A stretch of DNA of 64,000 nt from an uncultured Bacteroidota bacterium (GTDB lineage Bacteria; Bacteroidota; Bacteroidia; Bacteroidales; 4484-276): contig CAJATL010000226.1 in assembly GCA_903944895.1 (NCBI GenBank), forward strand, positions 7,762 through 71,761, given 5' to 3'. The notes below the pieces were generated by a model. It saw only the letters and a program-made list of their open reading frames with translations. It did no database searches and was not told the DNA's origin. Positions 6,001 through 49,726 of this stretch are shown here, one piece after another; the stretch's first letter is position 1, and each line of letters begins with the position of its first letter. Made by a program: the position numbers and the translations under genes.

Positions 6001-9000
6001 TCTGTAATGCCTTACGTCTGTGGATTTGTATGGAAGGTAAAATACACCAGTTCTTACGCTGTTGGACCCGGATTGATCAGGTTTCTGGTAACGTATGGCT
6101 CTTATGATAAGACCTTCGTCCGTTACTCTTGCTCCTTCTGTAGTTTCAACTGCATCCCTGAAAATGTGATCGGTTGGAAGTTCTGATTTATATTTTAACC
6201 TACCGGCTTGCTCCGGGTTTATCTGGAATTTGGGTAGGCCTTTTTCTACTTCGGCTCTTAGTTCTGGGGTGATATCAATAGAGTGCTGGGTTTGTTTTAC
6301 TTTTCCCAACTTATTTCTTGCCTCAACCGCTTTTTCGTATGTATCGAATAGTTTTGGTTCTTCGCCTGGTTCGCCTATCATCAATTCCCATTTTTTACCA
6401 TTCCTTTCGATTCCTATTTGATCTGGACTTGTTAAGTCTTTGGTTTCAATATCGGTAGTACTTACCTTTTGCTTAAACAGTTTCTCCGCTACTTCTCCAA
6501 TAATGCCAAGTTTACCTTCGGTTGGTGATCCATAGAAACCTTTCATTCCCTTCCCGCCTACCTTTAAACCCTCACCTTCAATTCTTCCTGATTTTTTATC
6601 TGTCAATACTCTTTCAGATAGTTCTTTGCCAATAACGTCTTCCAGGTTTTTACCAACCGATCCTATGCGTTGGTTTTTTTCCTCGGTTATTTTTCCTGTT
6701 TTACTGTCAACATACAGGGTAGTTATTCCGTCTTTATGTGAAATATCAACATACCTATTCCCACCAAACCCGTCTTCATATTGAATATAATCCACTTGTT
6801 TTTCTAAACTCCACCTATCATTCTGCTGCTCACCGGTAGTCCAGGCAATTTTATCAACACCTTGCTTTACTGCTTCTTTTAAAGCTACCTTAAGGCCAAG
6901 TTTTGTCCATGATGCTGTTTCAGTTACGAATGGTGCAGATTGAATGCTTTTTTTCCCAATATTATTTTGATTGTGGTCAAAAAGCTCCTTTTCAATGGCC
7001 TTTTCTTCCGTGTAAGCAACTTGTATGCTTTTTAGCTTGGTTCTTTTATTAAATATTGTAAATATTTTAGTGTTGCCAAGGTGCGGTAAAAATGGATTGT
7101 TCCTTCCAGAATCTTTAGATTCTATTATTTCAAGATCATCTGATTTTAATCCACCACCAATAAAGCCTTCTTTCTTCCCTTTCTGACCCCAATCACTCTG
7201 AACTTCTTCGAGAAATAATACCTTTTTGCCATCGGCACCAACACGGGTGTTCATGCGGAGGTGTACAGCAATGTTTGGTTCGCTGTAATGTGTATCGTTT
7301 ACAAACTGTACATCAGTTTTTGCGCCAGCATTTGCTTTGAGTAAGTCAATGACGTAATCTCTCGATTCGCCGGCCTCAAATGGATTGTAGCCTATGTTTT
7401 TTTCATAAATTTCGGCAAGCTGCTTGTCGGATAATGTTTCGTAATCTACGCCCTTGCCTTGTTTTGGAAGCGTTACCAGTATTTCTTTGTAGTTTTCTTT
7501 TTGGCCTTCGAGTTGGTATTGGGAATGTTTGGTATTGTCAAAGCCATCTTCATTTTGTTCATCAAGAACAATTTTTTTAGCCTCGTTTACTGTTTTTGCC
7601 TCTGACTTATCAACCGTTCTGAATAAAACACTAAGACCATTTTCTTGTCCATAAACGCTCCAATTTCCCGACGCTGTTTTCTGAACCGTTAAATCATTAA
7701 TACCTATTTTATCGTTTGTTCCTTTCACTACCTCCACGATCTCAATCCTGTTATCTTTCAGGAAATTTTGAATGTCGGCTTTGGTTACGCTTCCTGGCTG
7801 TGACTGCAGCCAATCGGTTAATCCAGTCCACTTAGCTTCTTCACCTTTTAATTGACTAAATTTTTCAACCCATTGTTTTGCCGGTAATTTATCATATTTT
7901 GCGTCAATAATTACCTTTTCCAGTGGGGAATAAAACCCATTGACTATCTCCGGAGAAACAGACTTACCATTCACGGTCCGGCCATCAGGTAGCTGGTAAA
8001 GCTTTGTGGTGCCATCCATAAATTCTCCACCACCGACATCGGCGATCCTATCATACCATTCATCGGGGGTTCGGTTTAATATGTCTTCACTTGCCCAGCT
8101 TTTTGCTCTTGCCTCCATTATGGCAATGGCGGCATCTATTTGTTGACCGGGGATGCCTTTTTTACTGAACTCTGCCCTGAATCTTTCGTGGACGTATTGT
8201 TTGTGTTCAGCGGAACTTCGTTTGATCGGCTGTTGAGGGTTTGGAGCATCTGGTTTAACCTGCCCTTTTCCATCTTGTCCAAACTTTGTAATATTGCTTT
8301 TAACTTTTTCATAATTATCAAGACTTTGTTTAAGTACTTCGTCAATAATATCTGCCTTTGTTCTTTCCTTACTTACCCCTGTTTCAAAATCAGTTTCAAG
8401 CTGACCAACGTGAGCGTTATAGTTTTTGATAAACTCTTTGAATTTTCCTTCAAGTTTTATCGCTACGGCGAGGTCGGCTGCATCAAAATTCTTTACCTCA
8501 AACATATTAACCTGCGAGGCCCATCCTTCCAGAGATTGCCCCGTTTTCTTTGCTTCATTGATAATCCCGATGGCGGTTTCTACATTCTTCTGTAAGGAAC
8601 TTTTGCCCAGCGCGGAGTTTTTGATTAAAGGAATAATTGAATCGAGAATCTTGTTGCGGATATCGCCCATTTGGGCTGCATCCAGTGTACGAATTGTTCC
8701 TTCGCTTAATGAAGACCCGAGTAGTATGTTGTTAACTAACGCAACGCCCTCTGCGGTTGATGTTATTGCTTTTTTATCAAAATACCTCGGCATTTCATTT
8801 GGCAATAAAATACCCTCCTCCTCGAACAACTTGATTAACTCTTTAACCTTTTTTGGGTTTGAGGTAACGTCGCTCATTCTGTCGGCAGTCTCGTAAATAC
8901 CATACAATAACCTTCTTGCCCGGTCAGTGATGATCTTGCCGATTTCTATTGCTTTTTCAATTGGAGATTGTGTTTTTTTATCATCCTTGTTAAACTTAGC

Positions 9001-12000
9001 CCAATTTTCTACCGTATAGGGCATTTCCTCTTTAAGTTCAAAAACAAACATCGGATTTTTAATCTTATCAATTTCATTTGGATTAATGCCATACATTTCA
9101 GCATTTTCCTTTAATATTGCTGTAAATTTTTTATCCGTACCCCTTATTGCAGCAAGCTGTCTTCCTGCCGTTCTGTTTGTTCCGCTAAATACAATTCCGC
9201 GTTTGTCAACTATTGGTAATTGGAATACCATTCTATCATCTGGGTTTAATGATACCCTTTCAATTTCACCCTGCTTTGCCACGCTATTCTCATAATCACT
9301 ACTATTAACAGTAGTTCCGTCTGGATTTGTTGGAAAATTTGGATTCTTTGCAAATGTTTCTGGGTTGTGTGAGGGAACAACATCATCACTTGACACGCAT
9401 TTAACTACACCAACAATTCTTTCCCCATTTGCGATTGTCTGCGTCATTGTTCTTCCTACAAGTTGATTCTTACCCTCTTTGTAGTTTTTGTTTCCGATTT
9501 CCGGGGATTGTTCTGGCTTTATGCCTTTCGCTGTATTGTAGTTTTTTAATATCTCCGTGGCAGCATCGAATCCGATTTTGAATTTACGTTGGATTTCACC
9601 AAGCGTTACTTCCCCGTGGATTAATTCTTCAACGTCTTTGAGTGTGATAACCTCACCGTTTTTGCGGGTGTGGAGGATTTTTTCTTCACCGGTTACCGGT
9701 TTAAACCCAGGCATTTTTTTGATGCCAAGTTTATCCAGTACCCGGGATTCGTAAAATTCCTTTTCCTTGCCTTCCGGCATTAACCCATCACGATTTAGCT
9801 GTTCCCAAGCAAGTTCCTTGGCTTGCTCTAATCCAATTCTCATTAATGGAACGCCCTGCCTTTTTGCGTAAAAATTATTCCGGCTATCTTTGAATACTTC
9901 GGCTGAATCCCTTTCTGATGTATTGAATAACCTTTCTATTCTTCCTTTTTGGTCTTTATACAGGTACTCGAGTTCTGAATCAGTCATATCCCACGGCTCT
10001 TTATCAACTTCACCGGCTGGCCTTTCATCTATTGGCATCCCAATTTTTAACTTTTCTCTATTTACCTGGGCCTGAATGGCACTTAATTGATCGGGGGATA
10101 ACTTCTTGCCGTTTGATTTACCTGATTTTAAAATCAACTCACCTTCGGCAATGCTGTTCTTGATTTTTTGAACTTCTGCCGGGTCGGTAACTTCTGGTTT
10201 TTCCTGTGCCGGTTTTTCAGAATGTTTTTTAATCAGTTCTTTGATCTCTGTTTCGTACTGATTTTTAACTTCATCAATGTAGGCTTCCTTGATTTCGAGT
10301 TCATTTTTACCCCTTTGGGTTGCCTTGAATTTTTTTAATGCTGCGTCCTCGATGGAAATTTCTTGTATTTTACCTCTTGCGGTGTTTTCTACTTCATACA
10401 GCTTGTTTTCTTTTTTGTTGTAGCGGATAGTGTTTGTTGACCCGTGATTTGTGGCGTAATGATCGAAAAGATTAACGTATTCTTTTTCTTTGGCCTTTTT
10501 TTCTTCCTCTGCCTCTAAAATTGAAACAATTTCATTTTCTTTTTTAGTTAGTTCATCAACCCGGCCCCGAAGTTCTTGTATTTTACCTGCATTTCCTTTT
10601 TCGTCTTCTTTTTCAAGGTCAATAATCTGATTATTCAAATCAAATATTTCGTTCCTAACTACAGATAAATCATTTCTGGTAACGGGCTTAATTTCTGGAT
10701 TTGGTGGAGGTACTGGTTTTTTTTGTTCAACCGGCTTTTCAACCTTTTTCTGTTCCTTCGGTGTAAATTCACCAACCAACACTTCTTCCCGGGTTTTGTC
10801 AATAATTACTTGGCGCTCGGCCTCAAGTTTCTCGAGTTCTGGTTGTAGTTTATCAATTTCCTCGGAAGCCTGTGCCATTTCCTCGTCGGACTTCGGGTTG
10901 CCTATTTTTTCATCAATGGCCTTAATTTTGATGCTTAACTTATCAATTTTAGCATTTATCTCTTTGGTGTTTTTCTCAACCTCCGAATCAGCAATTGATA
11001 AAATATCAACTTCCTGCTGTTTCAATAGTTCAATCTGGGCATCAATTTCTGACATCTTTGCTAATGTCTCATTTGTTACCACACCATTTGCTAAAATGTC
11101 TTCGTTTTGAATCTTTTCAGTTTCGGAAGTTAGTTCGGTAATCTTGTTTCTTACCGAGGATAATGCGTCGCGATTTGTAAGTTTTACCTCTGTGGGTGCG
11201 GGCTGTGGCTTCTTTTTTTCTTCCTCTAATTTCTTTACTTCTTCTGCTTTGGCTTTTTCTTCCGCAAGCACGTCAATAGTCCTGTCAATTTCGGCGTACA
11301 GGTCTTCAACAACCTTTTGTTCATTTGGAAGCCTTTCGCTGGGCATCATGGCTATATATGGCTCAATGCCATTAAGAAGACCTTCTTCTTTAAGTTTGGC
11401 CATAGTTACTTCGCCAATTCTTTTACGTTGTTCATCGGGGAGCGCCCAAAGTTTGTTCAGGTATTTGTTGTTTAATGAAAGGTGATTGTACTTATCAACC
11501 GATTGCTGTGCATCAGCCGGATTATCATAAAACTCTGATACCAATAAATTACCTCTACGATCTCTTATGTCAACATACGCACCATATTCTGTTGTGCGAA
11601 GGGTAACATCATCTGCAGGAATATCGTTCATTGGAGCCATTCCCTTGGAGCCAAAAAGTATTTTTCTCTTTACGCTCTCTGGAATGTTTTTATTAATGAT
11701 AAGTTCGTGTAATCCATACTCACTTAATGGTCTTACCATATCAATATCGGCCATCCTTTTCTTTTTCCCAAATTCATCACGAACGGACATTCTTTTTTCC
11801 CATGGCAATAGAAAATCATATTTATCTAAAGCATGAAGTTCTCCAGCTGTGAATTTTATCTCTTTCCTTAATTTAGCCTTTGCTCTTTCGTTCTTAAATG
11901 CACTTATCTCATGGGCTATTCCTTTTGCCTTCATAAATCCGAGCATAGCAACGCTCTCCATAAAGTCTTCGGAGGTTACTTCTGATAACCGGCCTTCAAG

Positions 12001-13878: not shown

Positions 13879-13890
13879 GATCAATGGTTT

Positions 13891-30154: not shown

Positions 30155-30172
30155 TTTATAGTTTAGTTTTAC
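30155..30172 (-). promoter_or_regulatory. leader motif copy (GTAAAACTAAACTATAAA-ATG)
   Basis: Reverse complement of + strand TTTATAGTTTAGTTTTAC, directly upstream of the ATG at 30154. Confidence 0.45.
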
Positions 30173-30606
30173 GATTTAATAAAATTTGTCTCAACTCCAA
30201 GCATACCAGATTTTGGAATAATCACTTCCTTTACCGGCTTGATTGTTTTAAACTTTTTCTTTTTTTTCTTTTTCTGCTTCTTCTTTTTTTTATAAAAATC
30301 AAAATCAGAACGTTTCATTTTAAAAGCCCCATGAACTTTTACATGGCAATTTTTACACAAAGTAATAAGATCGCTTAGGTTGTTGTGTTCATTTTTGTAA
30401 TGTTCGTATGTAATATGATGAACATGAAGGCTATCCTTACTCCCACACATAACGCAATTATTACCATCTCTTGATAGCACAACCTTCCTAATTTCCTTCC
30501 AGTAGTCAGATAATAGATAATCATGGTAATTTAGCTCTACACACCTTGATTGAAGTATTTTAAATACTTTATCAGTCATTCTTTTAATGTTTTTGCCAAA
30601 TATCAA
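30169..30606 (-). CDS. HNH endonuclease with poly-Lys tail (145 aa)
   Basis: CVMCGSKDSLHVHHITYEHYKNEHNNLSDLITLCKNCHVKVH: paired Cys motifs plus H-N-H. Confidence 0.8.
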   Translation of the reverse strand: MIFGKNIKRMTDKVFKILQSRCVELNYHDYLLSDYWKEIRKVVLSRDGNNCVMCGSKDSLHVHHITYEHYKNEHNNLSDLITLCKNCHVKVHGAFKMKRSDFDFYKKKKKQKKKKKKKFKTIKPVKEVIIPKSGMLGVETNFIKS

Positions 30607-31523: not shown

Positions 31524-31596
31524 AAAAAAAGCCCCGGAGAGTTACCGTAACCGAGGCTAACTAAACTCTTAAACCCTAAAAAAAGACAAATTTTAC
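31524..31596 (-). ncRNA. candidate small RNA 2 (promoter box, seed AGUUUAGUUAGCC, terminator)
   Basis: Downstream of the TATCTTTG box (31603-31610). Contains GAGTTTAGTTAGCC, then the hairpin AGCCTCGG..CCGGGGCT and T7. No ORF. Confidence 0.4.
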
Positions 31597-31602
31597 GAGC
31601 AA

Positions 31603-31610
31603 CAAAGATA
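31603..31610 (-). promoter_or_regulatory. Bacteroidota-type -7 box TATCTTTG
   Basis: Part of the exact 12-mer TATCTTTGTTGC, which is shared with the box at 31716-31723. Confidence 0.4.
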
Positions 31611-31641
31611 GTCAGAATTTTTCAAAAAGCAAGAAAAAAAT

Positions 31642-31708
31642 AAAAAAACCGGAAATATTTTTCAGGTATCTCCGGCCAACTAAACTAAATGTGTGATATG
31701 GAAGTAAA
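31642..31708 (-). ncRNA. candidate small RNA 1 (promoter box, seed AUUUAGUUUAGUUGG, terminator)
   Basis: Downstream of the TATCTTTG box. Contains ATTTAGTTTAGTTGG, then the hairpin CCGGAGATA..TATTTCCGG and T7. No ORF. Confidence 0.4.
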
Positions 31709-31715
31709 AGCGCAA

Positions 31716-31723
31716 CAAAGATA
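31716..31723 (-). promoter_or_regulatory. Bacteroidota-type -7 box TATCTTTG
   Basis: TATCTTTGTTGC, 5 nt after the TerL stop. Confidence 0.4.
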
Positions 31724-36651: not shown

Positions 36652-36683
36652 TTGCAAAAGTAAGAATATTATTGCTATATTTG
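36652..36683 (+). promoter_or_regulatory. putative Bacteroidota sigma-A type promoter (TTG ... TATATTTG)
   Basis: TTG at 36652-36654, a 21 nt spacer, then TATATTTG at 36676-36683. Located at the head of the + strand early operon. Confidence 0.5.
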
Positions 36684-41813: not shown

Positions 41814-42130
41814 TGGCACTTTCAATAATCAAAGACCTCAAAAAAAGATACTACGCAATCTGTAAAGAGTACGTGTTTTATTTCTCCCAGAAGCATGAAT
41901 ACGTGTTTTCGTATTGGGTTGCCGGTGAAAAGGGCGGGATCGCTTGCTTTATCGACCAGTATTTCTTTAGTACAGAAAACATCATTTTTGATGTTAACAC
42001 CAATCAACCTAAAAATCAGATATTTGAGTGGATGGATTACTGTGTTGAGCGGGAACTTCCTGGGTTAAGCTACCAGGAGTACATTGCGAACCTTAAAAAA
42101 AACAATATTCCGGAAAGTGATGGTAAGTAG
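41813..42130 (+). CDS. hypothetical protein (105 aa)
   Basis: Track ORF with a 1-nt overlap. Confidence 0.55.
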   Translation: MALSIIKDLKKRYYAICKEYVFYFSQKHEYVFSYWVAGEKGGIACFIDQYFFSTENIIFDVNTNQPKNQIFEWMDYCVERELPGLSYQEYIANLKKNNIPESDGK

Positions 42131-42264
42131 CGCGACATTTTACCAGAAATAGTTGTCTCCGTCCCGTGGAGAAAGTTGACTAAGCCCACTAAAATCAATG
42201 GTTTCATTTTTTATCTCAAAAAAATATTTCTGGACAAGAACATTGACTTAATAGATATAATGAC

Positions 42265-42311
42265 GGGGGCCTGGCACGCCACCCGAAACGTTTTTTGCGG
42301 ATGCCACCCCC
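42265..42311 (+). other. long imperfect GC-rich hairpin
   Basis: GGGGG-cc-TGGCA-CGC ... GCG-ga-TGCCA-CCCCC. The loop contains the palindrome AAACGTTT. Confidence 0.4.
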
Positions 42312-42720
42312 TCCATTAATAGGCGATCACACAGCCAGCAATTTCACTTAGTCCAAAGCAGACTGTTAATTTCCTGAATATCAATGTTTTATGATTTATT
42401 ATTGTAAATCTGGGAGTTTGATCACATCTAACTGCCTGATAATCAGATAGTTAACGTATTTTGCCGTATTGCACCAAAAACCACTAAAAAACATCGGGAC
42501 CGTTAACCATTCCCATTCTGGGAATTATGTCCGTTAATATGACTTCATTCTATTTATTGGAATGTGATCCCATTTAAGTAATCGAGTTCATAAATGATCT
42601 TACCGATATGTTTATAAATTCATATCGCTTTTCTTCCCTCCACTGGTTAAAATACTGATCAATTTATTGCACCCTGGTAGCAATATTACTTAATCAGTGT
42701 TAACCAATCATCTATATCAA

Positions 42721-42760
42721 TCTTAACGTTCTTTAACATTCATTAAAGTTCATTAACAGT
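42721..42760 (+). repeat. four tandem 10-bp iterons (consensus CnTTAACnTT)
   Basis: tcttaacgtt / ctttaacatt / cattaaagtt / cattaacagt. Further TTAAC copies at 42451, 42502, 42533, 42647 and 42700. Confidence 0.6.
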
Positions 42761-42787
42761 TTGTAGCATTATTACAATATATCTTTG
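42760..42787 (+). promoter_or_regulatory. putative promoter (TTTG ... TATCTTTG)
   Basis: TTTG at 42760-42763 and TATCTTTG at 42780-42787. The spacer is shorter than the consensus I recall. Confidence 0.4.
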
Positions 42788-42848
42788 CATCGTTGTTTAG
42801 TTCATTGAATGTCTGTAAAGAAACCGAGTTTTAGAAAGGCTTTGGGAG

Positions 42849-42895
42849 GTGTTATAGCTTAGTAGGGGTAACGTTAGCATCCTGAATCATAACAC
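42849..42895 (+). ncRNA. 47-nt structured element closed by a perfect 7-bp stem
   Basis: GTGTTAT ... ATAACAC. The interior has a D-loop-like TAGGGGTAACGTTAGC. Confidence 0.3.
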
Positions 42896-42931
42896 ACAGA
42901 GAGCGCAATAGATAAAGCGGGCACAGAAAAT

Positions 42932-43001
42932 AATACGACATGCGGGGCAGTAAATTAGCTTTAATTAGCTGGTTTAGGGAGTTCGATTCTCCATCGTATT
43001 A
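42932..43001 (+). ncRNA. non-canonical tRNA-like element
   Basis: Perfect 7-bp acceptor-like stem AATACGA/TCGTATT. T-arm GGAG-TTCGATT-CTCC. 8-9 bp central hairpin AAATTAGC-TTTAATTA-GCTGGTTT. No normal D-arm and no 7-nt anticodon loop. Confidence 0.4.
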
Positions 43002-43038
43002 CAATTTAATTTTAACTAAACTAACAGGAGGTAACACA

Positions 43039-43239
43039 ATGCCAAAACAAAACAAATTCACCTACTATAAGGTGATACAAGAAAATTGGGGTAACGGCTG
43101 GGATGATGTGGATTTTGAGGAAGTCAATACAGTGGAAGCGCGGAAGCTGTTTAAAGAGAATTTAAAAGCATACCGCGACAATTCACCGGCACTAATCAGG
43201 GTAATTAACCGCAGGGTATTAAAGGAGGCAACAGCATGA
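43039..43239 (+). CDS. hypothetical protein (66 aa from ATG 43039)
   Basis: Shine-Dalgarno AGGAGG 8 nt upstream. The track start at 42940 would read through the tRNA-like element. Confidence 0.6.
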   Translation: MPKQNKFTYYKVIQENWGNGWDDVDFEEVNTVEARKLFKENLKAYRDNSPALIRVINRRVLKEATA

Positions 43240-43466
43240 AAAGAACAAAACTACAAAGGCTTTTAAAGTCTTACGAAGTTGAAACAATTGGCGGCTATTT
43301 CTGGGTAATCGTTGAGAGCGTAATAAATGGGAACAGGGAACAAGCCCGAGAGCAATTTAAAGAGATGCAACAAGAACAAAGGAAAGAGTTTTTAATTTTC
43401 CTTTGCGTCGGCAATTACACAACATTAAGCGACAGAGATAAAGAAATGTTTATAAAAATTATTTAG
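43236..43466 (+). CDS. hypothetical protein (76 aa)
   Basis: Track ORF with a 4-nt overlap. Confidence 0.55.
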   Translation: MKRTKLQRLLKSYEVETIGGYFWVIVESVINGNREQAREQFKEMQQEQRKEFLIFLCVGNYTTLSDRDKEMFIKII

Positions 43467-43484
43467 CTGTTACAAGTCAGCAAA

Positions 43485-43510
43485 GCGGAGCCGGATTTAT
43501 TCGGCTCCGC
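43485..43510 (+). terminator. hairpin of intergenic cassette
   Basis: GCGGAGCCG-gatttatt-CGGCTCCGC. Confidence 0.5.
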
Positions 43511-43533
43511 TCAATAGTGAGGGCCGCAAAGGT

Positions 43534-43548
43534 GTAAACTAACTAAAT
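43534..43548 (+). promoter_or_regulatory. leader motif GTAAACTAACTAAAT
   Basis: Ends 10 nt before the ATG at 43559. Confidence 0.5.
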
Positions 43549-43558
43549 ATTTTTAATC

Positions 43559-44032
43559 ATGCAAACATTTCAAATTGATCTATTTACCGCGAATATTGCG
43601 GAAGTAGAAATTTCTTACAAGAACAAAGTAAGACCAGCAGACCGGCCAAAACTCGATAACTCAAACGATTGTGCGGATATTTTTAGGCGCATATGGACAG
43701 ATACGCTCGAGCATCACGAGAGCTTTTATTCCTTGATGTTAGACAGGGCAAACAAGGTTTTAGGGGTTTATAGAGTATCAGAAGGGGGAACGACTGGAAC
43801 GATAGCTGACCCCAAAATGATTTTTCAGGCAGCCCTAAAATGTAACGCTGCAGCCCTTATTTTGGCGCACAATCACCCATCAGGGAATTTGATCCCGTCG
43901 GTTTCCGATGTTAAACTAACTGAAAAAATGAAGGCTGCGGGGGTGCTTTTAGATATTCCCGTGCTTGATCATGTAATCTTAGGCATTGATGATAAGTACT
44001 ATAGTTTTGCTGATAATGGTAATGTATTTTAA
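43559..44032 (+). CDS. radC: RadC-like JAB/MPN domain protein (157 aa)
   Basis: LILAHNHPSGNLIPSVSDVKLT: the JAMM motif HxHPSG..S..D. Confidence 0.8.
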   Translation: MQTFQIDLFTANIAEVEISYKNKVRPADRPKLDNSNDCADIFRRIWTDTLEHHESFYSLMLDRANKVLGVYRVSEGGTTGTIADPKMIFQAALKCNAAALILAHNHPSGNLIPSVSDVKLTEKMKAAGVLLDIPVLDHVILGIDDKYYSFADNGNVF

Positions 44033-44082
44033 GCGGTGGCCAGTCCGTTAAATTGTGAGCCGGTCAGTCTTCATAACTGACT

Positions 44083-44097
44083 GTAAACAAACTAAAT
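44083..44097 (+). promoter_or_regulatory. leader motif GTAAACAAACTAAAT
   Basis: Preceded by the hairpin CAGTC-ttcataa-GACTG and followed by the ATG at 44107. Confidence 0.5.
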
Positions 44098-44106
44098 TTT
44101 TAGAGT

Positions 44107-44742
44107 ATGTCAAAAAGCAAATTAACACTTAAGGAAGCGTTGAGTATTGAGTTTTCAAACGAATGCCACAACAAAAGTATAAAGGCTGTGGAAGCCTTTG
44201 TAAATCAGATTAAAGAATTTTATCCTGTTCTTGATGTTGAAATCAATACAGAAGGCGAAGGGCAATATTTATCCTTCACTGATTCGGAAATAATTTTGCA
44301 GGTGGAACCGGTTAAAATCATCATCAAGCAGATGGGATCAATCTACAAAAATGAAATTTACCTGTTTTACAGGAAGGAGTTTAAAAACCTCCGCCATTCT
44401 GCAGAACACACGATTAAAAACACGTTCAAGGCACCAAACGCCATTTACAAGCCAACAACAAAAAAAATTCAGGCTTGGATTGATTATCTCAACTTGGTTT
44501 ACACCGAGTGCGAGAGACAGAACAACGAGAGACAAACCGAAATAGATCGGTTTTACGCATCCATCAAAAACGAGCCGGTAAGGTATTGGCGTGACAGAAC
44601 AGAAGGGGAGATAAGAAAAGGTGGGCTGATATTCACCTTTAAAATCGAATATGGATTTGTTTACAAAAGGATTCAGGTTGATAGCGTTGATTCTACCATT
44701 GAGAATTTTAATCTGATGGCAGACAACAAACTAAAAGTTTAA
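44107..44742 (+). CDS. hypothetical protein (211 aa)
   Basis: Track ORF. Confidence 0.65.
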   Translation: MSKSKLTLKEALSIEFSNECHNKSIKAVEAFVNQIKEFYPVLDVEINTEGEGQYLSFTDSEIILQVEPVKIIIKQMGSIYKNEIYLFYRKEFKNLRHSAEHTIKNTFKAPNAIYKPTTKKIQAWIDYLNLVYTECERQNNERQTEIDRFYASIKNEPVRYWRDRTEGEIRKGGLIFTFKIEYGFVYKRIQVDSVDSTIENFNLMADNKLKV

Positions 44743-44746
44743 AGCC

Positions 44747-44992
44747 ATGAAAACTATTTTCCTATTTTCGTTCATGTTCCTTTCACTTATTTTAAGCGCA
44801 CAGGACAGTTTTAAAGTTGATTCGGCAGGTAAGGTCGTACAAATCAAAATAACGCAGCCCAAGCAGCCGGATAAAGTAATTCAAGTAATAGACACTGTAA
44901 AATATTATCAGGGTGCAAAGGGTGGAGTTTATTACCTCCGCAAATCGAAGAAGACCGGCAAAACATATAAATGTTACCTGAAAAAAGATTGA
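44747..44992 (+). CDS. secreted small basic protein with PBCV-type basic adaptor-like motif (81 aa)
   Basis: Signal peptide MKTIFLFSFMFLSLILSAQ, followed by GAKGGVYYLRKSKKTGKTYKCYL. Confidence 0.5.
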   Translation: MKTIFLFSFMFLSLILSAQDSFKVDSAGKVVQIKITQPKQPDKVIQVIDTVKYYQGAKGGVYYLRKSKKTGKTYKCYLKKD

Positions 44993-45094
44993 TTTACTCT
45001 CTCGGTTAATAGTACTGAAAAGAAGTGCTAAAGCCTTGTAAGCTGAACCGAGACCAAATTTTTTAAACAAAGTATTAATCCGGCCAGCAATGGT

Positions 45095-45110
45095 CACAAA
45101 CTAAACTACA
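45095..45110 (+). promoter_or_regulatory. leader motif CACAAACTAAACTACA
   Basis: Immediately 5' of the ATG at 45111. Preceded by the hairpin TCTCGGTT..AACCGAGA plus T6. Confidence 0.45.
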
Positions 45111-45398
45111 ATGATAAATTTAAAAAAGAAAGTAACTCTCAAACGTAAGGTTACGCTAAAAAACAAGGAGGAACAGAAACTTGCTTACCTCAACATTTTA
45201 AACAGGCAAATTTTAAGGCTTGCCCGAATCTACCAAAGCCGAAAGGTTACAGTACAAAGCTCGGCATGGCACCAGCGGGTTTGTTCAATGCAATGCGATG
45301 TAATTCTTGAAAAGCATAGGATATTACGTCAGCCCAATTCAGTGACGGTGCAAGAGTTGGTATTTCGTGGAATGATAAACACAAACAGCCATGAATAA
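45111..45398 (+). CDS. hypothetical basic protein (95 aa)
   Basis: Track ORF. Confidence 0.5.
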   Translation: MINLKKKVTLKRKVTLKNKEEQKLAYLNILNRQILRLARIYQSRKVTVQSSAWHQRVCSMQCDVILEKHRILRQPNSVTVQELVFRGMINTNSHE

Positions 45399-45537
45399 AA
45401 ATTGGTTTTGTTATTACATGAATAACGACGGCAGAAGGGAAATAGTTGAGGAAGGGCTTACATACAGTGCAGCCGTGAAACTTTCTCAACAGTGGGTTAC
45501 AAAGTATCAAATCTATTTAGAAGTTGAATCGAAATGA
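45391..45537 (+). CDS. small hypothetical protein (48 aa)
   Basis: Own translation: MNKNWFCYYMNNDGRREIVEEGLTYSAAVKLSQQWVTKYQIYLEVESK. ATGA overlap with the gene starting at 45534. Confidence 0.45.
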   Translation: MNKNWFCYYMNNDGRREIVEEGLTYSAAVKLSQQWVTKYQIYLEVESK

Positions 45538-45755
45538 CCAACAAGCAGAAATCAAGAATCCTCAACAGTATGCTTGAGGATTCTTACAGTGAGGAAAGTT
45601 TCATCGAAAACTTTATTTACCTGACAAACAAGAACAGGGGAGATCACACAACAGAACGCGCGATGCGTAACGCTTACAGAAACGGCAAAGCCGGTGATAT
45701 GTTAATGAAGTATGATTCTATTGCAGCAAATCAAATGTTAAGTGATCGTGATTGA
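45534..45755 (+). CDS. hypothetical protein (73 aa)
   Basis: Track ORF. Confidence 0.55.
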   Translation: MTNKQKSRILNSMLEDSYSEESFIENFIYLTNKNRGDHTTERAMRNAYRNGKAGDMLMKYDSIAANQMLSDRD

Positions 45756-45865
45756 TAAGCTATACAGATTGATAACCTCCGCGCGGGTTGATCAATTAAC
45801 TACCTCAACCTTGATCGTTGGGGTTTTATGGGTGATTATGGTATTTATTGTAAAACATTTATAGT

Positions 45866-46360
45866 ATGAAAAAAGAATTAAAGAAGGTCAAACAGTTTAA
45901 AGGCCGGCAAATGGATGGCTTTAGTGCCGTTCTGTACCTCAACGATGTTAAAGTTTGTGATGTTATTAATCACGGCGATGGGTCAGCTTTTTATTATGGC
46001 CCATTGCTTACCGGCCAGCAAAAAGAATTATTGAGTGAATTTCAGATGATCGTAAGTAGTTTACCTCCCATCAAAGTAGATGATAACCTTTCCTTTGAGC
46101 CTGATATGGATTACTACCTTTCAGAATTATTGGAAACACAACAGGTGCAGGTAAAACTCGAGAAGCTGTACAAGAATCACATTGTTTTCGGGATTCCTGG
46201 AAATTGGTTTGAATTAAAAAAACTCAAAACACACCTACCTATATCGGAGCTATCCGATAAACACCTTCAAATCTATGTTAATGAAATTAAGTTAAAGCTA
46301 AAGCCAAACGAACAGATTTTAAACACAAATTTAAGGCCGTTACAAGTCGGCAATGAATAG
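45866..46360 (+). CDS. hypothetical protein (164 aa)
   Basis: Track ORF. Confidence 0.6.
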   Translation: MKKELKKVKQFKGRQMDGFSAVLYLNDVKVCDVINHGDGSAFYYGPLLTGQQKELLSEFQMIVSSLPPIKVDDNLSFEPDMDYYLSELLETQQVQVKLEKLYKNHIVFGIPGNWFELKKLKTHLPISELSDKHLQIYVNEIKLKLKPNEQILNTNLRPLQVGNE

Positions 46361-46385
46361 TGAGGGGTCGCCAGCGATGGCGGCT

Positions 46386-46401
46386 GTAAACTAACCTAAA
46401 T
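46386..46401 (+). promoter_or_regulatory. leader motif GTAAACTAACCTAAAT
   Basis: Part of a cassette shared with 43466-43558: GTTACAAGTCRGCAA .. AATAGTGAGGG .. TGTAAACTAAC. Confidence 0.5.
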
Positions 46402-46411
46402 TTTAATTATA

Positions 46412-46702
46412 ATGCGAATAGACAAATCGAAATTAAGAACAATGATCGTAGGGATTAATGATCACGTTGCCCAGCAATATTCTCAATCCTTGCTTGATCA
46501 GAAACTTGCTAACGGAAAACATAAATACCGGAGACTGGAAACGTTTACCGGCTTTGATATTGTTTTGCCGGTGTACACAGAAAGCTCGGCCAGTTATAAG
46601 GTAGTGTTTTCTTATCAATCAGAACCCGCTCAAATTTGGTGGGATGCTTCAATAGTTAATATTCATACTGTAAGAGAACAACAAGTAAGTATGTTTGCTT
46701 AG
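46412..46702 (+). CDS. hypothetical protein (96 aa)
   Basis: Track ORF. Confidence 0.55.
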   Translation: MRIDKSKLRTMIVGINDHVAQQYSQSLLDQKLANGKHKYRRLETFTGFDIVLPVYTESSASYKVVFSYQSEPAQIWWDASIVNIHTVREQQVSMFA

Positions 46703-46769
46703 TTCTTTTTTATGCGAATAGTAGCCATATATGTAATAATCTAAATATGTACAATGTAATAATACAACT

Positions 46770-47156
46770 ATGAATGATTTATTTGGAGAAGTAATTTACG
46801 CTTACACACGTAAGCAAGCCGTCGAGGATGGCTTTCAGGTATTGGCACCTGATACAGAGTGCAAAGCAGCCGGCATTAAATATCCGGTTTTTATCAATCG
46901 TACTGTTTGGGACAAGTATGTAGTTGTCCCGAAAATTATGGATGGATGGCAGGATGAATCGGGCCGGCTATGGGATATTCTTTTTATGTTCACACTGGCA
47001 GCAAAAAGGATTCAGGGTAATACCCTACTGTTTAAGTTGTTCGTGCAAAATACAAAGGCCAAGCCCCGCGAAATAACACTAAAAGCGGTGATCGGGCCGA
47101 ATGACATTGATAATCCTCAACCGGCAATAACAATTATGTTACCGGATGAAGATTAG
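46770..47156 (+). CDS. DUF6573-like protein, a family I recall from plasmid/ICE leading regions (128 aa)
   Basis: FGEVIYAYTRKQAVEDGFQV ... GRLWDILFMF ... LKAVIGPNDIDNPQPAITIMLPDED matches the remembered family pattern. Confidence 0.5.
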   Translation: MNDLFGEVIYAYTRKQAVEDGFQVLAPDTECKAAGIKYPVFINRTVWDKYVVVPKIMDGWQDESGRLWDILFMFTLAAKRIQGNTLLFKLFVQNTKAKPREITLKAVIGPNDIDNPQPAITIMLPDED

Positions 47157-47200
47157 GTTTAGTTTAGTTTAGGCGGCACCCCAAGGGGTGCTGCTTTTTT
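47156..47200 (+). terminator. intrinsic terminator preceded by the antisense version of the leader motif (possible 3'UTR-derived sRNA)
   Basis: GGTTTAGTTTAGTTTAGG, then GCGGCACCCC-aa-GGGGTGCTGC, then T6. Confidence 0.6.
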
Positions 47201-47280
47201 AAAAGTATTGATTCTATTGATAAAAATGCCATTCCCTCACGGGGTGGAGACAAAAATATTTTAATAAAAAAGGAGACAAA

Positions 47281-47460
47281 ATGAATATTACAAAAAGGCA
47301 CACTAAATGGCAAATTACCGGCGCAAAAGTCGATGGAGTTACTCAACAATTTACTTGTTTTGGTTCACGGGACAGAGATAGGATATTACATATTCTTACG
47401 CAAGACCCGACATTCACAGTAATCATATTAATCAATCAAGGAAAGGTAACAGGACTATGA
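47281..47460 (+). CDS. small hypothetical protein (59 aa)
   Basis: Own translation: MNITKRHTKWQITGAKVDGVTQQFTCFGSRDRDRILHILTQDPTFTVIILINQGKVTGL. Shine-Dalgarno AAGGAG upstream; ATGA overlap downstream. Confidence 0.5.
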   Translation: MNITKRHTKWQITGAKVDGVTQQFTCFGSRDRDRILHILTQDPTFTVIILINQGKVTGL

Positions 47461-47756
47461 GACATTCAAAAAAACCATGGCGTTACTGCGAAGAAAAACG
47501 CACCGTTTACAGTTCCTATGGAGACATAATTGCTCGAATAGTTGTTGGGGAATTGGAACGTAAAGGAGGGGAAAAAGACACAACAGCACATGCAAACGCT
47601 TTGCTTATGGCTGCCGCCCCTGAAATGCACGAAGCGCTTGTATTGATCAAGCAAATACTTACTGACTGGAATATTGAAGGCAGGTACATTAACGAAATCG
47701 AGTACATAAAAACAATCTTAAACAAAACACATGAAAACAATTCTTGCGTGGGTTAA
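47457..47756 (+). CDS. hypothetical protein (99 aa)
   Basis: Track ORF. Confidence 0.55.
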   Translation: MRHSKKPWRYCEEKRTVYSSYGDIIARIVVGELERKGGEKDTTAHANALLMAAAPEMHEALVLIKQILTDWNIEGRYINEIEYIKTILNKTHENNSCVG

Positions 47757-47874
47757 AAAAGTTCACTGGCCATCTTTGGCTATCGCCACTTATGTAGTGG
47801 TTGCCTGTGTTGCGCTTTTCTATTGGCTGTTAACTGCATTGATTGACCTTTTCAATGCGATAAATTTCTGGTAA
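47731..47874 (+). CDS. small membrane protein (47 aa)
   Basis: Own translation: MKTILAWVKKVHWPSLAIATYVVVACVALFYWLLTALIDLFNAINFW. Confidence 0.4.
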   Translation: MKTILAWVKKVHWPSLAIATYVVVACVALFYWLLTALIDLFNAINFW

Positions 47875-47949
47875 CAGAAACCCTCCCCGATGATGGCCTG
47901 AAAAGAAGGTCAATGTTTTGGAGACTGATCGGGGAACAAGTTTTTTTTA

Positions 47950-47963
47950 TTAACTAACTAAAT
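47950..47963 (+). promoter_or_regulatory. leader motif TTAACTAACTAAAT
   Basis: Preceded by the hairpin TCCCCGAT..ATCGGGGA plus T8. The ATG is at 47973. Confidence 0.5.
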
Positions 47964-47972
47964 ATTATTTTT

Positions 47973-48200
47973 ATGGACAAATTAAATAAACAGCATGTAC
48001 AAAATGCGCTGGATTCATTCAAAAAAGAGAATCCAGAATTACAGGATTTTACCCTACAATGGGCCGACAAACGGTTAGGGAAGAAAGTTGCTCTTGTAAA
48101 TAAACTCGGTCACATTCAAACCGATTTTATGACACTCACTGAAATGAATCAGTTTTTGCGTGGATATTATTTTAAATCGACTAACAAATTTGTGAAATGA
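47973..48200 (+). CDS. hypothetical protein (75 aa)
   Basis: Track ORF. Confidence 0.55.
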   Translation: MDKLNKQHVQNALDSFKKENPELQDFTLQWADKRLGKKVALVNKLGHIQTDFMTLTEMNQFLRGYYFKSTNKFVK

Positions 48201-48376
48201 AAACATTTTGCTCACAACAGGAACATGAACGCAAGACACCATACATTGCGGTTGACCGGATCACGAATGAAATACACAATTCATTCTCTACTCGTAAAGT
48301 AGCTAAAAATTGGGTACTTAAAACCAATCCAACATCAAACATTGAGATCACAACACGTAAAAAATTCAAGCCATGA
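48197..48376 (+). CDS. small hypothetical protein (59 aa)
   Basis: Own translation: MKTFCSQQEHERKTPYIAVDRITNEIHNSFSTRKVAKNWVLKTNPTSNIEITTRKKFKP. ATGA overlaps at both ends. Confidence 0.45.
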   Translation: MKTFCSQQEHERKTPYIAVDRITNEIHNSFSTRKVAKNWVLKTNPTSNIEITTRKKFKP

Positions 48377-48525
48377 AAAAAGTAAAATGTAAATTAATCC
48401 TTCACGGATCGTGCAAACAGCTTGATTGGGGGATATTTGAAAGTATCACAGCAGCAAAGAAATATGTTCGTGAGTGCTGGGATCGGCCCTACACGATTGT
48501 TAAACTCAAAAATCAATCAACATGA
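48373..48525 (+). CDS. small hypothetical protein (50 aa)
   Basis: Own translation: MKKVKCKLILHGSCKQLDWGIFESITAAKKYVRECWDRPYTIVKLKNQST. ATGA overlaps at both ends. Confidence 0.45.
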   Translation: MKKVKCKLILHGSCKQLDWGIFESITAAKKYVRECWDRPYTIVKLKNQST

Positions 48526-48716
48526 AAACATACTTTGTGCGCGACAAATCCGGTAGGTGTGGTACCAACACCCTGACCGATGAAGCTATTAACATCTTTG
48601 ATGATGATGAAGATTTAAGCTGGGATGGTGAACGTTTAAATGAATGGACACCGGAAGCTGGTGTTGGTGATGTATGGGAAAACAATTCACTCGAAATAAC
48701 CTGTATTGCCGTATGA
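48522..48716 (+). CDS. hypothetical acidic protein (64 aa)
   Basis: Track ORF. Confidence 0.5.
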   Translation: MKTYFVRDKSGRCGTNTLTDEAINIFDDDEDLSWDGERLNEWTPEAGVGDVWENNSLEITCIAV

Positions 48717-48859
48717 AAACACTTTACTATTTTATGGAAAGGCTGGTATGGTCTAAAAGGGTTGATGTGATATTAAACGCCATCTTGATCCTATTAACCA
48801 TGTGCGTAACGGCTTGGGTTATTATTGCCATCATTTACTTTAAGGAGGAGGTTTTATGA
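48713..48859 (+). CDS. small membrane protein (48 aa from ATG 48713)
   Basis: Track ORF 48674..48859, trimmed to the ATGA-coupled start. TM segment ILNAILILLTMCVTAWVIIAIIYF. Confidence 0.45.
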   Translation: MKTLYYFMERLVWSKRVDVILNAILILLTMCVTAWVIIAIIYFKEEVL

Positions 48860-48963
48860 ATAACGGATTGATCTACATTATTGTCTGTGTTGTGTTCTTC
48901 GCTATTTTTATGGTGAAGGTATTCAGTCAGGACAAGGATGATGATGCTGGGAATTTAGCTTAA
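48856..48963 (+). CDS. small membrane peptide (35 aa)
   Basis: Own translation: MNNGLIYIIVCVVFFAIFMVKVFSQDKDDDAGNLA. ATGA overlap upstream. Confidence 0.4.
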   Translation: MNNGLIYIIVCVVFFAIFMVKVFSQDKDDDAGNLA

Positions 48964-48991
48964 TTAAATTTTAATTTTTAATAAATAATTT

Positions 48992-49726
48992 ATGACAACG
49001 AAAGAAGAAGTATTACAAAATTGTACAGTAGAAGGCAATGTAATTAAACTACCAACCGAGCAACTGGATAGAAAACTTTATCAAGATGTGGCAAAATCAC
49101 TGGAATTAATTGGCGGTAAGTGGAAAGGAGGAAAGATATTTGGGTTTGTTTTTGCAACAGACCCAACCGATTTGCTTGATCAAATTGCCAATGGAGAAAA
49201 GCGAAATCTTAAAAAAGAGTTTCAATTTTTTGCAACCCCAGATAAACTGGCTGATAAGCTGGTTTATTTAGCTGACCTAAAACAACACGACACTATTTTA
49301 GAGCCAAGTGCGGGGCAAGGGGCTATTATTAAAGCGATAAATAAGGTTTGTGATGTTGCGCCTGATTGCTTTGAATTAATGGACGTAAATGCCATTATTT
49401 TAAATAAAAGCGGCCTTCGGTTTAATTTGATTGGTGATGATTTCCTGAAACACAACGGTAAAACATACACCAAGATAATTGCCAATCCTCCTTTTACAAA
49501 AAACCAAGACATTGATCATTTAAAAGAAATGTATGGGTGTCTTTCCCGTGGGGGTAGATTGGTTTGCATTACTTCTGAAAGCTGGGAAAATGGAAGTCAG
49601 AAAAAGCAGGTTGACTTCAAAAGCTGGCTCAAGGAAGTTAATGCAGAAGTAATTGACATTGAAAAGGGAGTATTTAAAGAAAGTGGAACTGTTGTTGGTG
49701 GCAAAATTGTAGTCATTAACAAGTAG
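48992..49726 (+). CDS. SAM-dependent DNA methyltransferase, N6-adenine type (NPPF) (244 aa)
   Basis: Motif I ILEPSAGQGAII. Motif IV IIANPPFTKNQD. Confidence 0.75.
   Translation: MTTKEEVLQNCTVEGNVIKLPTEQLDRKLYQDVAKSLELIGGKWKGGKIFGFVFATDPTDLLDQIANGEKRNLKKEFQFFATPDKLADKLVYLADLKQHDTILEPSAGQGAIIKAINKVCDVAPDCFELMDVNAIILNKSGLRFNLIGDDFLKHNGKTYTKIIANPPFTKNQDIDHLKEMYGCLSRGGRLVCITSESWENGSQKKQVDFKSWLKEVNAEVIDIEKGVFKESGTVVGGKIVVINK

Follow-up and report, generated by a model that had tools for sequence, protein, structure and literature searches.

The 64-kb window analysed here (the whole 64,000-nt stretch of contig CAJATL010000226.1) derives from an uncultivated phage whose host is probably a Flavobacteriia-like member of the Bacteroidota; the nearest cultured relatives of its terminase are phages of Flavobacterium, Cellulophaga, Tenacibaculum, and Maribacter. 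Between 42 and 48 kb lies an early gene block, in which a gene at 43236-43466 is followed by a RadC-like gene (PHROG and Pfam assignments) opening at ATG 43559, by ORF 44107-44742, and by further genes opening at ATG 44747, 45111, 46412, and 47973; ORF 45866-46360 and gene 46770-47156 also lie in the block. Three related cassettes occupy the junctions before ATG 43559, 44107, and 46412, and these are very probably cis-acting, self-cleaving ribozymes of the type P3 twister class, placed at the gene junctions of an early polycistronic transcript.

A sequence-only reading of this DNA had reported that at least five early genes (ATG 43559, 44107, 45111, 46412, and 47973) are preceded, at a fixed short distance, by one common motif and by a terminator-like hairpin. 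The strings are indeed present: GTAAACTAACTAAAT at 43534-43548, ending 10 nt 5' of ATG 43559; GTAAACAAACTAAAT at 44083-44097, ending 9 nt 5' of ATG 44107; GTAAACTAACCTAAAT at 46386-46401, with one C more, ending 10 nt 5' of ATG 46412; and TTAACTAACTAAAT at 47950-47963, ending 9 nt 5' of ATG 47973. ATG 45111 has only a looser variant, ACAAACTAAACTACA, with a gap of 0 nt, and the AACTAAAC core ends 4 nt before the start codon. The copy said to precede the minus-strand ATG 30154 is also there (GTAAAACTAAACTATAAA), as are the two blocks, GTTACAAGTCRGCAA and AATAGTGAGGG, said to be common to cassettes 43466-43558 and 46338-46411. Cassette 44025-44099 has variants of both blocks as well (GGTGGCCAGTCCG and AATTGTGAGCC), which had been passed over. 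The hairpin claim stood for ATG 45111 and 47973, where a hairpin and a T-run lie upstream, but not for the three other sites, where the hairpin is stem P1 of the ribozyme and has no U-run.

In terms of abundance, the motif showed no excess window-wide: when up to 2 mismatches were allowed, TAAACWAACTAAAT had 5 matches (3.2 expected), and AACTAAA had 20 copies (19.1 expected). Within the early block at 42-48 kb, each of the six sense-strand copies of AACTAAA has a start codon no more than 35 nt downstream. AACTA and ACTAA occurred in 11 of 84 upstream regions, compared with ~1.9 expected from coding sequence, and A-rich TAAA-type 5-mers were enriched 3-6-fold in the 30 nt before starts. It is the position of the motif, not its abundance, that is non-random, and the sequence-only reading was right both in assigning it to the 5' leader around the translation start and in looking for a feature at the RNA level.

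To identify the cassettes, the window was scanned against Rfam, and a relaxed Rfam scan was run on 43000-48500. Twister-P3 (RF03154, gathering score 39.9 bits) was the sole Rfam family to reach its gathering score in the 64-kb window, with a match of 44.6 bits at 46328-46402 (ribozyme T3); none of the three explanations offered by the sequence-only reading had named such ribozymes. The relaxed scan returned two other full-length matches to the same family, at 44025-44099 (ribozyme T2; 36.8 bits, E = 3.9e-5) and at 43459-43550 (ribozyme T1; 28.2 bits, E = 0.011), the low score of ribozyme T1 being due to an insertion of 28-30 nt that forms an extra P5 hairpin. No other ribozyme class appeared at E <= 5 in the whole window, and in the cassettes before ATG 45111 and 47973 neither other ribozyme classes (hammerhead, pistol, hatchet, twister-sister, HDV-like, or twister P1 and P5) nor any Rfam family appeared at E <= 10. 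The RF03154 alignments put the motif on model positions 58-73, gUAAacaaACuaaauua, and they give the blocks of the cassettes a place in the fold: GTAAACWAACTAAAT is the 3' strand of the ribozyme, comprising the scissile U^A, the P2 3' strand (ACUA or ACAA), AC from pseudoknot T2, and the P3 3' strand (CUAAAU). Stem P4 and its conserved loop correspond to GTTACAAGTCRGC, and AATAGTGAGGG combines the P2 5' strand with the nucleotides of pseudoknot T1.

A pattern scan of metagenomes derived from the core returned 12 further twisters of the same subfamily from lake and ocean contigs, together with one in a contig of a metagenome-assembled genome (MAG), and from the 12 metagenome twisters we built a covariance model of our own, R1. 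This model recovered all six phage copies (those of the window and of the related contig L079, described below) at E <= 1e-6. The core nucleotides (P4 loop CAAG, the G after P2a, and the A that follows the scissile phosphate in U^AA) are present in ribozymes T1 and T3 and in 16 others, that is, in 18 of the 20 twisters aligned, all of them with the GUUACAAGUC loop.

All three ribozymes lie on the plus strand. Ribozyme T1 spans 43460-43550 (28.2 bits with Rfam; 42.2 bits, E = 1e-9, with R1). Its P3a (43460-43465) holds the stop codon UAG (43464-66) of gene 43236-43466, and it is followed by P4 with loop GUUACAAGUC (43466-43481), the extra P5 hairpin of a perfect 10 bp between P4 and P2 (43484-43511), P2a UAGU (43515-18), GAGGG (43519-23), a short P1 (43524-32), and the tail GU^AAACUAACUAAAU. 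Ribozyme T2 spans 44026-44099 (R1: 32 bits, E = 1e-6), with the stop codon UAA (44030-32) of the RadC-like gene in P3a and P1 at 44062-44082; it has a variant P4 loop, GUGGCCAGUC, and a matching GAGCC, and pseudoknot T1 therefore consists of 3 Watson-Crick pairs there. Ribozyme T3 spans 46328-46402 (R1: 73.9 bits), with P1 at 46367-46384, and the upstream ORF 45866-46360 crosses its P3a and P4 to end at UAG (46358-60), which is P2a. From the conserved U-A step in the consensus alignment, the cleavage sites are predicted at U43535^A43536 (ribozyme T1), U44084^A44085 (ribozyme T2), and U46387^A46388 (ribozyme T3).

The sequence-only reading had proposed a comparison of the motif across related genomes as a check, and this comparison showed that the three twister cassettes recur at syntenic positions. 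The 211-aa protein encoded downstream of ribozyme T2 has one diverged homolog (74% identity), on the 30.8-kb contig L079, where the gene order is the same and the proteins are 74-78% identical to those of the window phage. Twisters are present at all three syntenic junctions of L079, with 54.7, 36.1, and 48.6 bits against RF03154 for the orthologs of ribozymes T1, T2, and T3, respectively; the T1 ortholog (2827-2898) is thus above the gathering score of 39.9 bits, and the T3 ortholog (5204-5279) has compensatory changes in P1. The P1 stem sequences differ between the window twisters and their L079 orthologs. The intergenic region of ribozyme T2 is 93% identical to that of L079, compared with 76-77% for the flanking genes. 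Further relatives were sought among deposited phages by blastn, which gave no match for the region and chance matches only for the consensus twister, and in IMG/VR, where a search with two flanking proteins found no relatives and a loose twister pattern gave 78 loci, nearly all of them chance matches in coding DNA. The twister from the MAG contig (L102, 4130-4212, minus strand, 77.5 bits) lies on an 8.9-kb contig of 34% GC binned in a Pirellulales MAG; this is probably a mis-binned phage contig and carries no information on the host.

Covariation was assessed in an alignment of 20 twisters (18 distinct) from 14 contigs, which was fitted to the model and thus favours structure, and in which paired cells made up 95%, compared with 29-40% in a control that keeps the relatedness of the sequences while sliding the partners by 1-3 columns. 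Changes on both sides were seen in 16 of the 20 pairs (8/8 in P1 and 5/5 in P3), and none of 500 shuffles reached the observed values. For P3, the variants AUUUAG/CUAAAU, GUUAG/CUAAC, AAUUAG/CUAAUU, and GUUUAG/CUAAAC were found, which shows that what constrains the 3' half of the motif (CUAAAU) is RNA pairing to a strand located 60-80 nt upstream, rather than a protein or a promoter. Pseudoknot T2 (GU:AC, that is, G-C and U-A) is invariant in all 18 distinct sequences. In pseudoknot T1, the C-G pair is invariant, and the middle pair is G-C only in ribozyme T2 and its ortholog, where loop GGC matches GCC. The complementarity in pseudoknot T1 is compatible with the fold and shows little covariation. 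We regard the twisters as additional members of a known ribozyme family, forming a subfamily from uncultivated Bacteroidota phages of which some members score below the Rfam threshold.

The placement of the ribozymes relative to the genes is regular. In 12 of the 20 twisters, the upstream stop codon falls at ribozyme position 5-6 (UAG or UAA in P3a), and in 17 of the 20 the first ORF-opening AUG lies 18-28 nt past the predicted cut. For the window twisters, the next AUG stands 9-11 nt beyond the end of the ribozyme, and the predicted cuts would leave leaders of 23 nt (ribozyme T1, 43536-43558), 22 nt (ribozyme T2, 44085-44106), and 24 nt (ribozyme T3, 46388-46411). With the stop codon in the 5' strand of the ribozyme and the AUG just after its 3' end, the whole intergenic gap is therefore ribozyme. 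Three twisters are found within 3 kb of one operon, and the RadC-like gene has ribozyme T1 on one side and ribozyme T2 on the other. On this fixed placement of stop codon in P3a, twister, and AUG, or on a role of twisters in phages, only general statements were found in the searchable literature, which did not cover the original twister paper.

A pattern scan for promoters identified one intergenic TAnnTTTG box upstream of ribozymes T1 and T2, a likely host-type promoter with a -7 box TATCTTTG at 42780-42787 (plus strand) and a TTG ~19 nt upstream; the next such box is at 46690. The 42780 box would drive the operon with ribozymes T1 and T2, and its lone position fits a polycistronic transcript. 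TTG-N19-TAnnTTTG boxes are also found at the divergent junctions of the phage, at 36662/36676 and 49964. The box stands within 810 nt without an ORF (42130-42940), which are partly conserved in L079 (1382-2424) and have GUUUAGUU ~8 nt past the 42780 TATCTTTG box; this stretch may serve as an origin or in regulation, or it may encode a long leader RNA.

Based on these features, we propose that the transcribed RNA would fold co-transcriptionally into P3-P4-P2-P1 with two pseudoknots and would cut itself between the U and the A of GU^AAAC at each junction of the early polycistronic RNA. With a ribozyme set between an upstream stop codon and the following start codon at each of these junctions, the multi-gene early mRNA would probably be cut into separate messages. 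The upstream message would retain the ribozyme body as a compact 3' end bearing a 2',3'-cyclic phosphate, and the downstream message would open with 5'-OH-AAAC(U/A)AAC(C)UAAAU..., 22-24 nt before the AUG; the RadC-like gene would in this way be released as a precise single-gene mRNA (43536-44084). Before the cut, the A-rich element at -11 to -15 (UAAA of the P3 3' strand) would be held in P3. The downstream start region would be released from this helix either by the cut itself or by a ribosome that unwinds P3a as it terminates there. Overall, neighbouring genes would be uncoupled in stability and translation, as with engineered ribozyme insulators. Trans-cleavage of leaders that carry only the motif by the cleaved twister body was also considered and was dropped, as there is no evidence for it and the body's own P1 hairpin would clash.

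Several observations weigh against the reading of all three cassettes as active operon-punctuating ribozymes. Within the window, ribozymes T1 and T2 score below the RF03154 gathering score. Ribozyme T1 has a P1 of only 2-3 bp and a 28-nt insertion, which we read as a rare optional P5 stem, and it could be impaired as a ribozyme. The P4 loop of ribozyme T2 is CCAG and not the highly conserved CAAG, and the same holds for its L079 ortholog. The middle pair of pseudoknot T1 is A.G in 16 of the 18 distinct sequences. The promoter and the operon structure are read from consensus matches only, and inverted (GUUUA)n copies beside three terminators (see below) are unexplained by ribozymes. Finally, 5'-OH ends can stabilise or destabilise mRNA in other systems, and the effect here could run in either direction.

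Beyond the three ribozymes, the motif stands before genes that have no ribozyme. R1 was run with filters off on 42000-49000, where it gave 8.4 bits at 43014 and no match at 44729, 45099, or 47956; for sites 30168 and 54234, outside that stretch, only the Rfam scan of the whole window applies, and it found nothing there. The leader at 47949-47972 (plus strand; UUAACUAACUAAAUAUUAUUUUU), before ATG 47973, is homologous to the post-cleavage leader of ribozyme T1, since 18-26 nt of it align with the T1 tail and leader at a score of 31-35 compared with a null maximum of 23-24. The leader before ATG 44747 (44725-44746, plus strand; AACAAACUAAAAGUUUAAAGCC), at the 3' end of ORF 44107-44742, reached a score of 29 against the tail and leader of the L079 ortholog of ribozyme T2, equal to the highest of 200 shuffles (95th percentile 22). 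The leader at 45078-45110 (plus strand), before ATG 45111, has a small hairpin, GGCCAGCAAUGGUC, and then ACAAACUAAACUACA; this leader is conserved in L079 and lacks the catalytic core, and it weakly resembles P1 and the tail of the T3 ortholog (local score 22-26 compared with 21-22 for the 95% null). We considered 45078-45110 as a half or decayed twister; the similarity is marginal and there is no model match, and this possibility is not claimed here. On the minus strand, the leader before ATG 30154 (30155-30176; GUAAAACUAAACUAUAAA) showed no twister similarity in local alignment apart from the short motif. A further leader, UUAACUAAACUAACAGGAGGUAACACA (43010-43039, plus strand), precedes ATG 43040, the probable true start of a gene called as ORF 42940-43239: this ORF is probably mis-started, and ATG 43040 matches L079.

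The genes at 45111, 47973, 30154, 43040, 44747, and 54224 carry only an A-rich AACUAA(A)CUAA leader, which is homologous to the twister tail and leader. In other contigs, AACUAA(A)CUAA likewise stands 2-15 nt before many ATGs without a ribozyme, including five genes in contig L090. Where the gap is 9-11 nt (four sites), the motif has its UAAA at -11 to -15. Initiation without a Shine-Dalgarno sequence is promoted in Flavobacterium johnsoniae by adenines at -11 to -14 and by low structure from -20 to +20 (PMC6847099). As the UAAA at -11 to -15 is placed as in the F. johnsoniae start element, the motif-only copies are read as the strong A-rich start region of this phage group, and we read the twister tail as the same start-region sequence with a double duty.

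Two kinds of structure adjoin these leaders. Directly upstream of the leader of gene 43040 is a tRNA-like structure (42931-43002, plus strand; L079 2321-2390), in which the acceptor stem is 8 bp long, the T arm (GGGAGUUCGAUUCUCC) is canonical, and the anticodon arm is replaced by a long stem; it was not called by ARAGORN, and its acceptor stem has compensatory changes in L079. It may be a processing signal for RNase P or RNase Z, and thus a second kind of mRNA punctuation in the operon. At 44999-45054 and 47884-47935 (plus strand) are paralogous branched hairpins with an identical GAAAAGA loop, each followed by a T-run and then by a motif leader. Their inner stems are compensatory (AGUACU/AGUGCU vs UGGCCU/AGGUCA), and they are kept in L079, where the intergenic region is 91% identical compared with ~76% for genes. 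Neither branched hairpin had an Rfam match, and they may represent an undescribed structured terminator or RNA element.

The sequence-only reading had also pointed to small-RNA-like units complementary to the motif. Two such units lie in tandem on the minus strand at 31527-31723, each with a Bacteroidota-type -7 box (TATCTTTG), 30-45 nt, an unpaired segment, and a hairpin with U7; with promoter-type box and terminator signals present, they look, by these signals, like small genes. The segments before the hairpins, predicted to be single-stranded, are CAUUUAGUUUAGUUGG (unit 1) and GAGUUUAGUUAG (unit 2). An inverted copy of the repeat, (GUUUA)3, is found at 47157-47205 (plus strand), where it lies between the stop of gene 46770-47156, which it directly follows, and a terminator hairpin with U7, and 5 of the 6 antisense-oriented AACTAAA copies are immediately 5' of an intrinsic-terminator hairpin. 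Between stop codon and terminator hairpin, GTTTA has 3 copies in the window (47157-47172) and 2 in L079 (6030-6040), a difference that looks like slippage-type variation. Terminase-side intergenic units of promoter, U/G-rich segment, and terminator are also found in relatives with a terminase identity of 56-61% (L085 11440-11800 and L087 10330-10440, after the terminase), and Rfam gave no matches on the terminase-side loci of the relatives. The long intergenic region after the terminase appears to be a conserved place for small-RNA-like genes.

How far these observations could be explained in other ways than by ribozymes differs between the alternatives. If the whole motif were simply a translation-start consensus of phage and host, with the Rfam matches arising by chance in AT-rich leaders, the enrichment of A-rich TAAA-type 5-mers before starts and the many genes with the leader and no ribozyme would be expected; however, full-length twister matches at E = 2e-7 to 1e-9, invariant GC-rich core blocks, covariation far above both controls, and syntenic conservation would not, and for the cassettes this explanation is so improbable as to be nearly negligible. 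It is refuted for ribozymes T1-T3 by their E-values, covariation, and orthologs, and it stays the best description of the motif-only sites. The suggestion of the sequence-only reading that the motif is a DNA-level signal, such as a phage promoter or a regulator-binding box of early genes, was not borne out. The regular position just upstream of several genes would suit it, and the pentamer periodicity (TAAAC/TAACT) could suit a DNA-binding protein. However, the motif is unlike the TTG-N19-TAnnTTTG promoters at 36662, 36676, 42780, and 49964, its end is only 0-11 nt from the ATG (0 at 45111, and 9-10 at the four other sites), covariation links its 3' half to the upstream strand over 18 distinct sequences as in an RNA helix, and the adjoining blocks are invariant twister core; a DNA box is thus very unlikely. 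The other suggestion, of a mobile cassette resembling the promoter-stem-loop elements (PeSL) of T4-type phages and present in both orientations, stood in one respect. Gains and losses of gene cassettes do coincide with twister and leader borders in two independent comparisons: L092 and L098 have the upstream gene and the twister in common and differ by a 250-bp gene cassette bounded by the 13-nt leader repeat TAAAAATCAATCA, and the window differs from L079 by an insertion of ~480 bp with gene 45866-46360, ending exactly at P3a of ribozyme T3; this 164-aa gene is absent from L079 (5119-5203), and its frame runs 30 nt into ribozyme T3. In addition, L095 and L101 have a 100% identical upstream gene and a common twister followed by unrelated downstream genes. 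The AACUAA(A)CUAA leader appears to have spread as gene cassettes were gained and lost at these repeats. The inverted copies, in contrast, are only the short repeat beside terminators, and no TAnnTTTG or sigma-70-type promoter was found inside the cassettes, as a PeSL would have. That the cassettes are mainly recombination linkers, with ribozyme activity incidental or lost, could draw on these mosaic borders and on the homology of the motif-only leaders to the twister tail and leader. Sequence identity would suffice for recombination, though, and would not keep helices by compensatory changes (16/20 pairs), nor keep catalytic nucleotides invariant among contigs with unrelated flanking genes, and the fixed geometry of stop codon, ribozyme, and AUG points to a function at the RNA level. 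We consider a primary role in recombination unlikely, and recombination is better read as a consequence of conserved repeats between genes.

A different kind of alternative, which could also add to the ribozymes, is that antisense RNAs acting in trans pair with the motif; these would be the two small-RNA-like units and the 3'-UTR with (GUUUA)3 at 47157, and they would block translation or the folding of the twister 3' strand. The small-gene-like build of the units, the antisense AACTAAA copies directly 5' of terminator hairpins, and the similar units after the terminase gene in relatives are consistent with such a role, and the perfect matches of 9-11 nt to the motif that had been reported do exist. 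When the complementarity was compared with shuffled sequences, as the sequence-only reading had advised, the outcome was divided. Contiguous matches of at least 8 nt were found to 9 leaders for unit 1 and 7 for unit 2 compared with ~1.0 for shuffled seeds (P <= 0.002), although the leaders share one repeat and these matches are therefore not independent. The RNAduplex energies (-10 to -14 kcal/mol), in contrast, were no better than those of shuffled seeds (P = 0.16, 0.31, and 0.76), and any U/G-rich segment pairs with A-rich leaders. In the relatives, the analogous units of L085/L086 and L087 showed no excess complementarity to the few leaders available, and co-variation between seeds and leaders gave no signal. 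Antisense pairing would also leave the conservation of the ribozyme core and the covariation of P3 unexplained. The earlier proposal of antisense RNAs that occlude start regions therefore keeps its small-gene-like units and contiguous matches and gains nothing from the energies or the relatives; it is a weak reading, which we hold to be rather improbable, and, if real, the pairing would act on the ribozyme strand or leader and not in place of the ribozyme. In a combined circuit, the twister 3' strand would be the start region and would be controlled in trans by the two small RNAs and by the (GUUUA)n 3'-UTR pairing with AAACUAACUAAAU. If this were true, the pairing with AAACUAACUAAAU would stop the ribozyme from folding, leaving the operon uncut, or mask the freed leader, and such a ribozyme-small RNA circuit would switch early-gene expression; we give it little credence. 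A milder version of it would be that intercistronic twisters holding the stop codon in P3 tie their folding to the termination of upstream translation. Self-cleaving type P3 twisters at the three junctions, with A-rich start leaders elsewhere, remain our preferred reading.

Three further features were noted in the window and its relatives. On the minus strand, an ORF of at least 4630 codons (1-13890) runs off the window start and probably encodes a giant protein associated with the virion or the tail of this ~74-kb phage. The terminase homolog P0006 (1108 aa) has the intein and homing-endonuclease Pfam domains PF05204, PF05203, and PF14528. In L087 (2757-4313), a Y1 transposase, a Cas12f/TnpB-like fragment, and an adjoining GIY-YIG gene were found.

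In the case of the twister and most small self-cleaving ribozymes, the biological role has been open since their discovery (PMC6765202). The arrangement described here (stop codon in P3, ribozyme, cut, ~22-nt leader, and AUG; 20 copies on 14 contigs) is regular enough to make a hypothesis testable by simple reporters, namely that the ribozymes punctuate the operon, so that neighbouring genes are insulated from each other and a start region devoid of a Shine-Dalgarno sequence is unmasked. It also illustrates that a repeated pre-gene motif resembling a promoter or a small-RNA target can turn out to be one of the strands in a structured RNA, and for annotation the gain is a twister subfamily of uncultivated Bacteroidota phages with some members under the Rfam threshold.

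The twister class reportedly goes back to Roth et al. in 2014. As in RF03154, the subfamily has helices P3, P4 (loop GUUaCAAGUC), P2, and P1 in a circular permutation with the ends in P3, the same U^A step, the conserved G after P2, and pseudoknot T2, and ribozyme T3 and two orthologs pass the curated score. It differs from RF03154 in the A.G middle pair of pseudoknot T1, in the rare P5 insertion and very short P1 of ribozyme T1 and the CCAG loop of ribozyme T2, and in the fixed placement with the stop codon inside P3a and the AUG 18-28 nt past the cut. In synthetic insulators of the RiboJ type, a ribozyme just upstream of the start region trims away the variable RNA that precedes it, so that a leader with a defined 5'-OH end results. 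The twisters share this position and would leave such a leader; unlike RiboJ, which is an engineered hammerhead-type ribozyme (sTRSV), they are natural twisters, and most of the ribozyme would stay on the upstream fragment. The PeSL of T4-like phages combine a promoter and a stem-loop and act at the level of DNA and transcription. Like them, the twister cassettes are repeated intergenic elements of the early region that flank small genes and coincide with cassette gain and loss, but they are ribozymes with RNA covariation and no promoter. The motif-only leaders fit the start regions of Bacteroidota, which are A-rich at about -11 to -14, with little structure and no Shine-Dalgarno sequence (Baez et al. 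2019, PMC6847099), and AACUAA(A)CUAA differs from these as a specific phage-wide version, 6-fold enriched, beyond general A-richness. For bacterial hammerheads and twisters, a part in the processing of polycistronic or 3'-UTR mRNA has been proposed, and many of the twisters lie near phage genes (PMC6765202). In common with those hammerhead and twister cases, self-cleaving RNAs stand here between co-transcribed genes, often near phage genes, with a proposed difference in stability or translation of the two halves (PMC6765202), whereas the present locus differs from them in having three copies within 3 kb, one gene bracketed by two of them, and a 3' strand that doubles as the start region.

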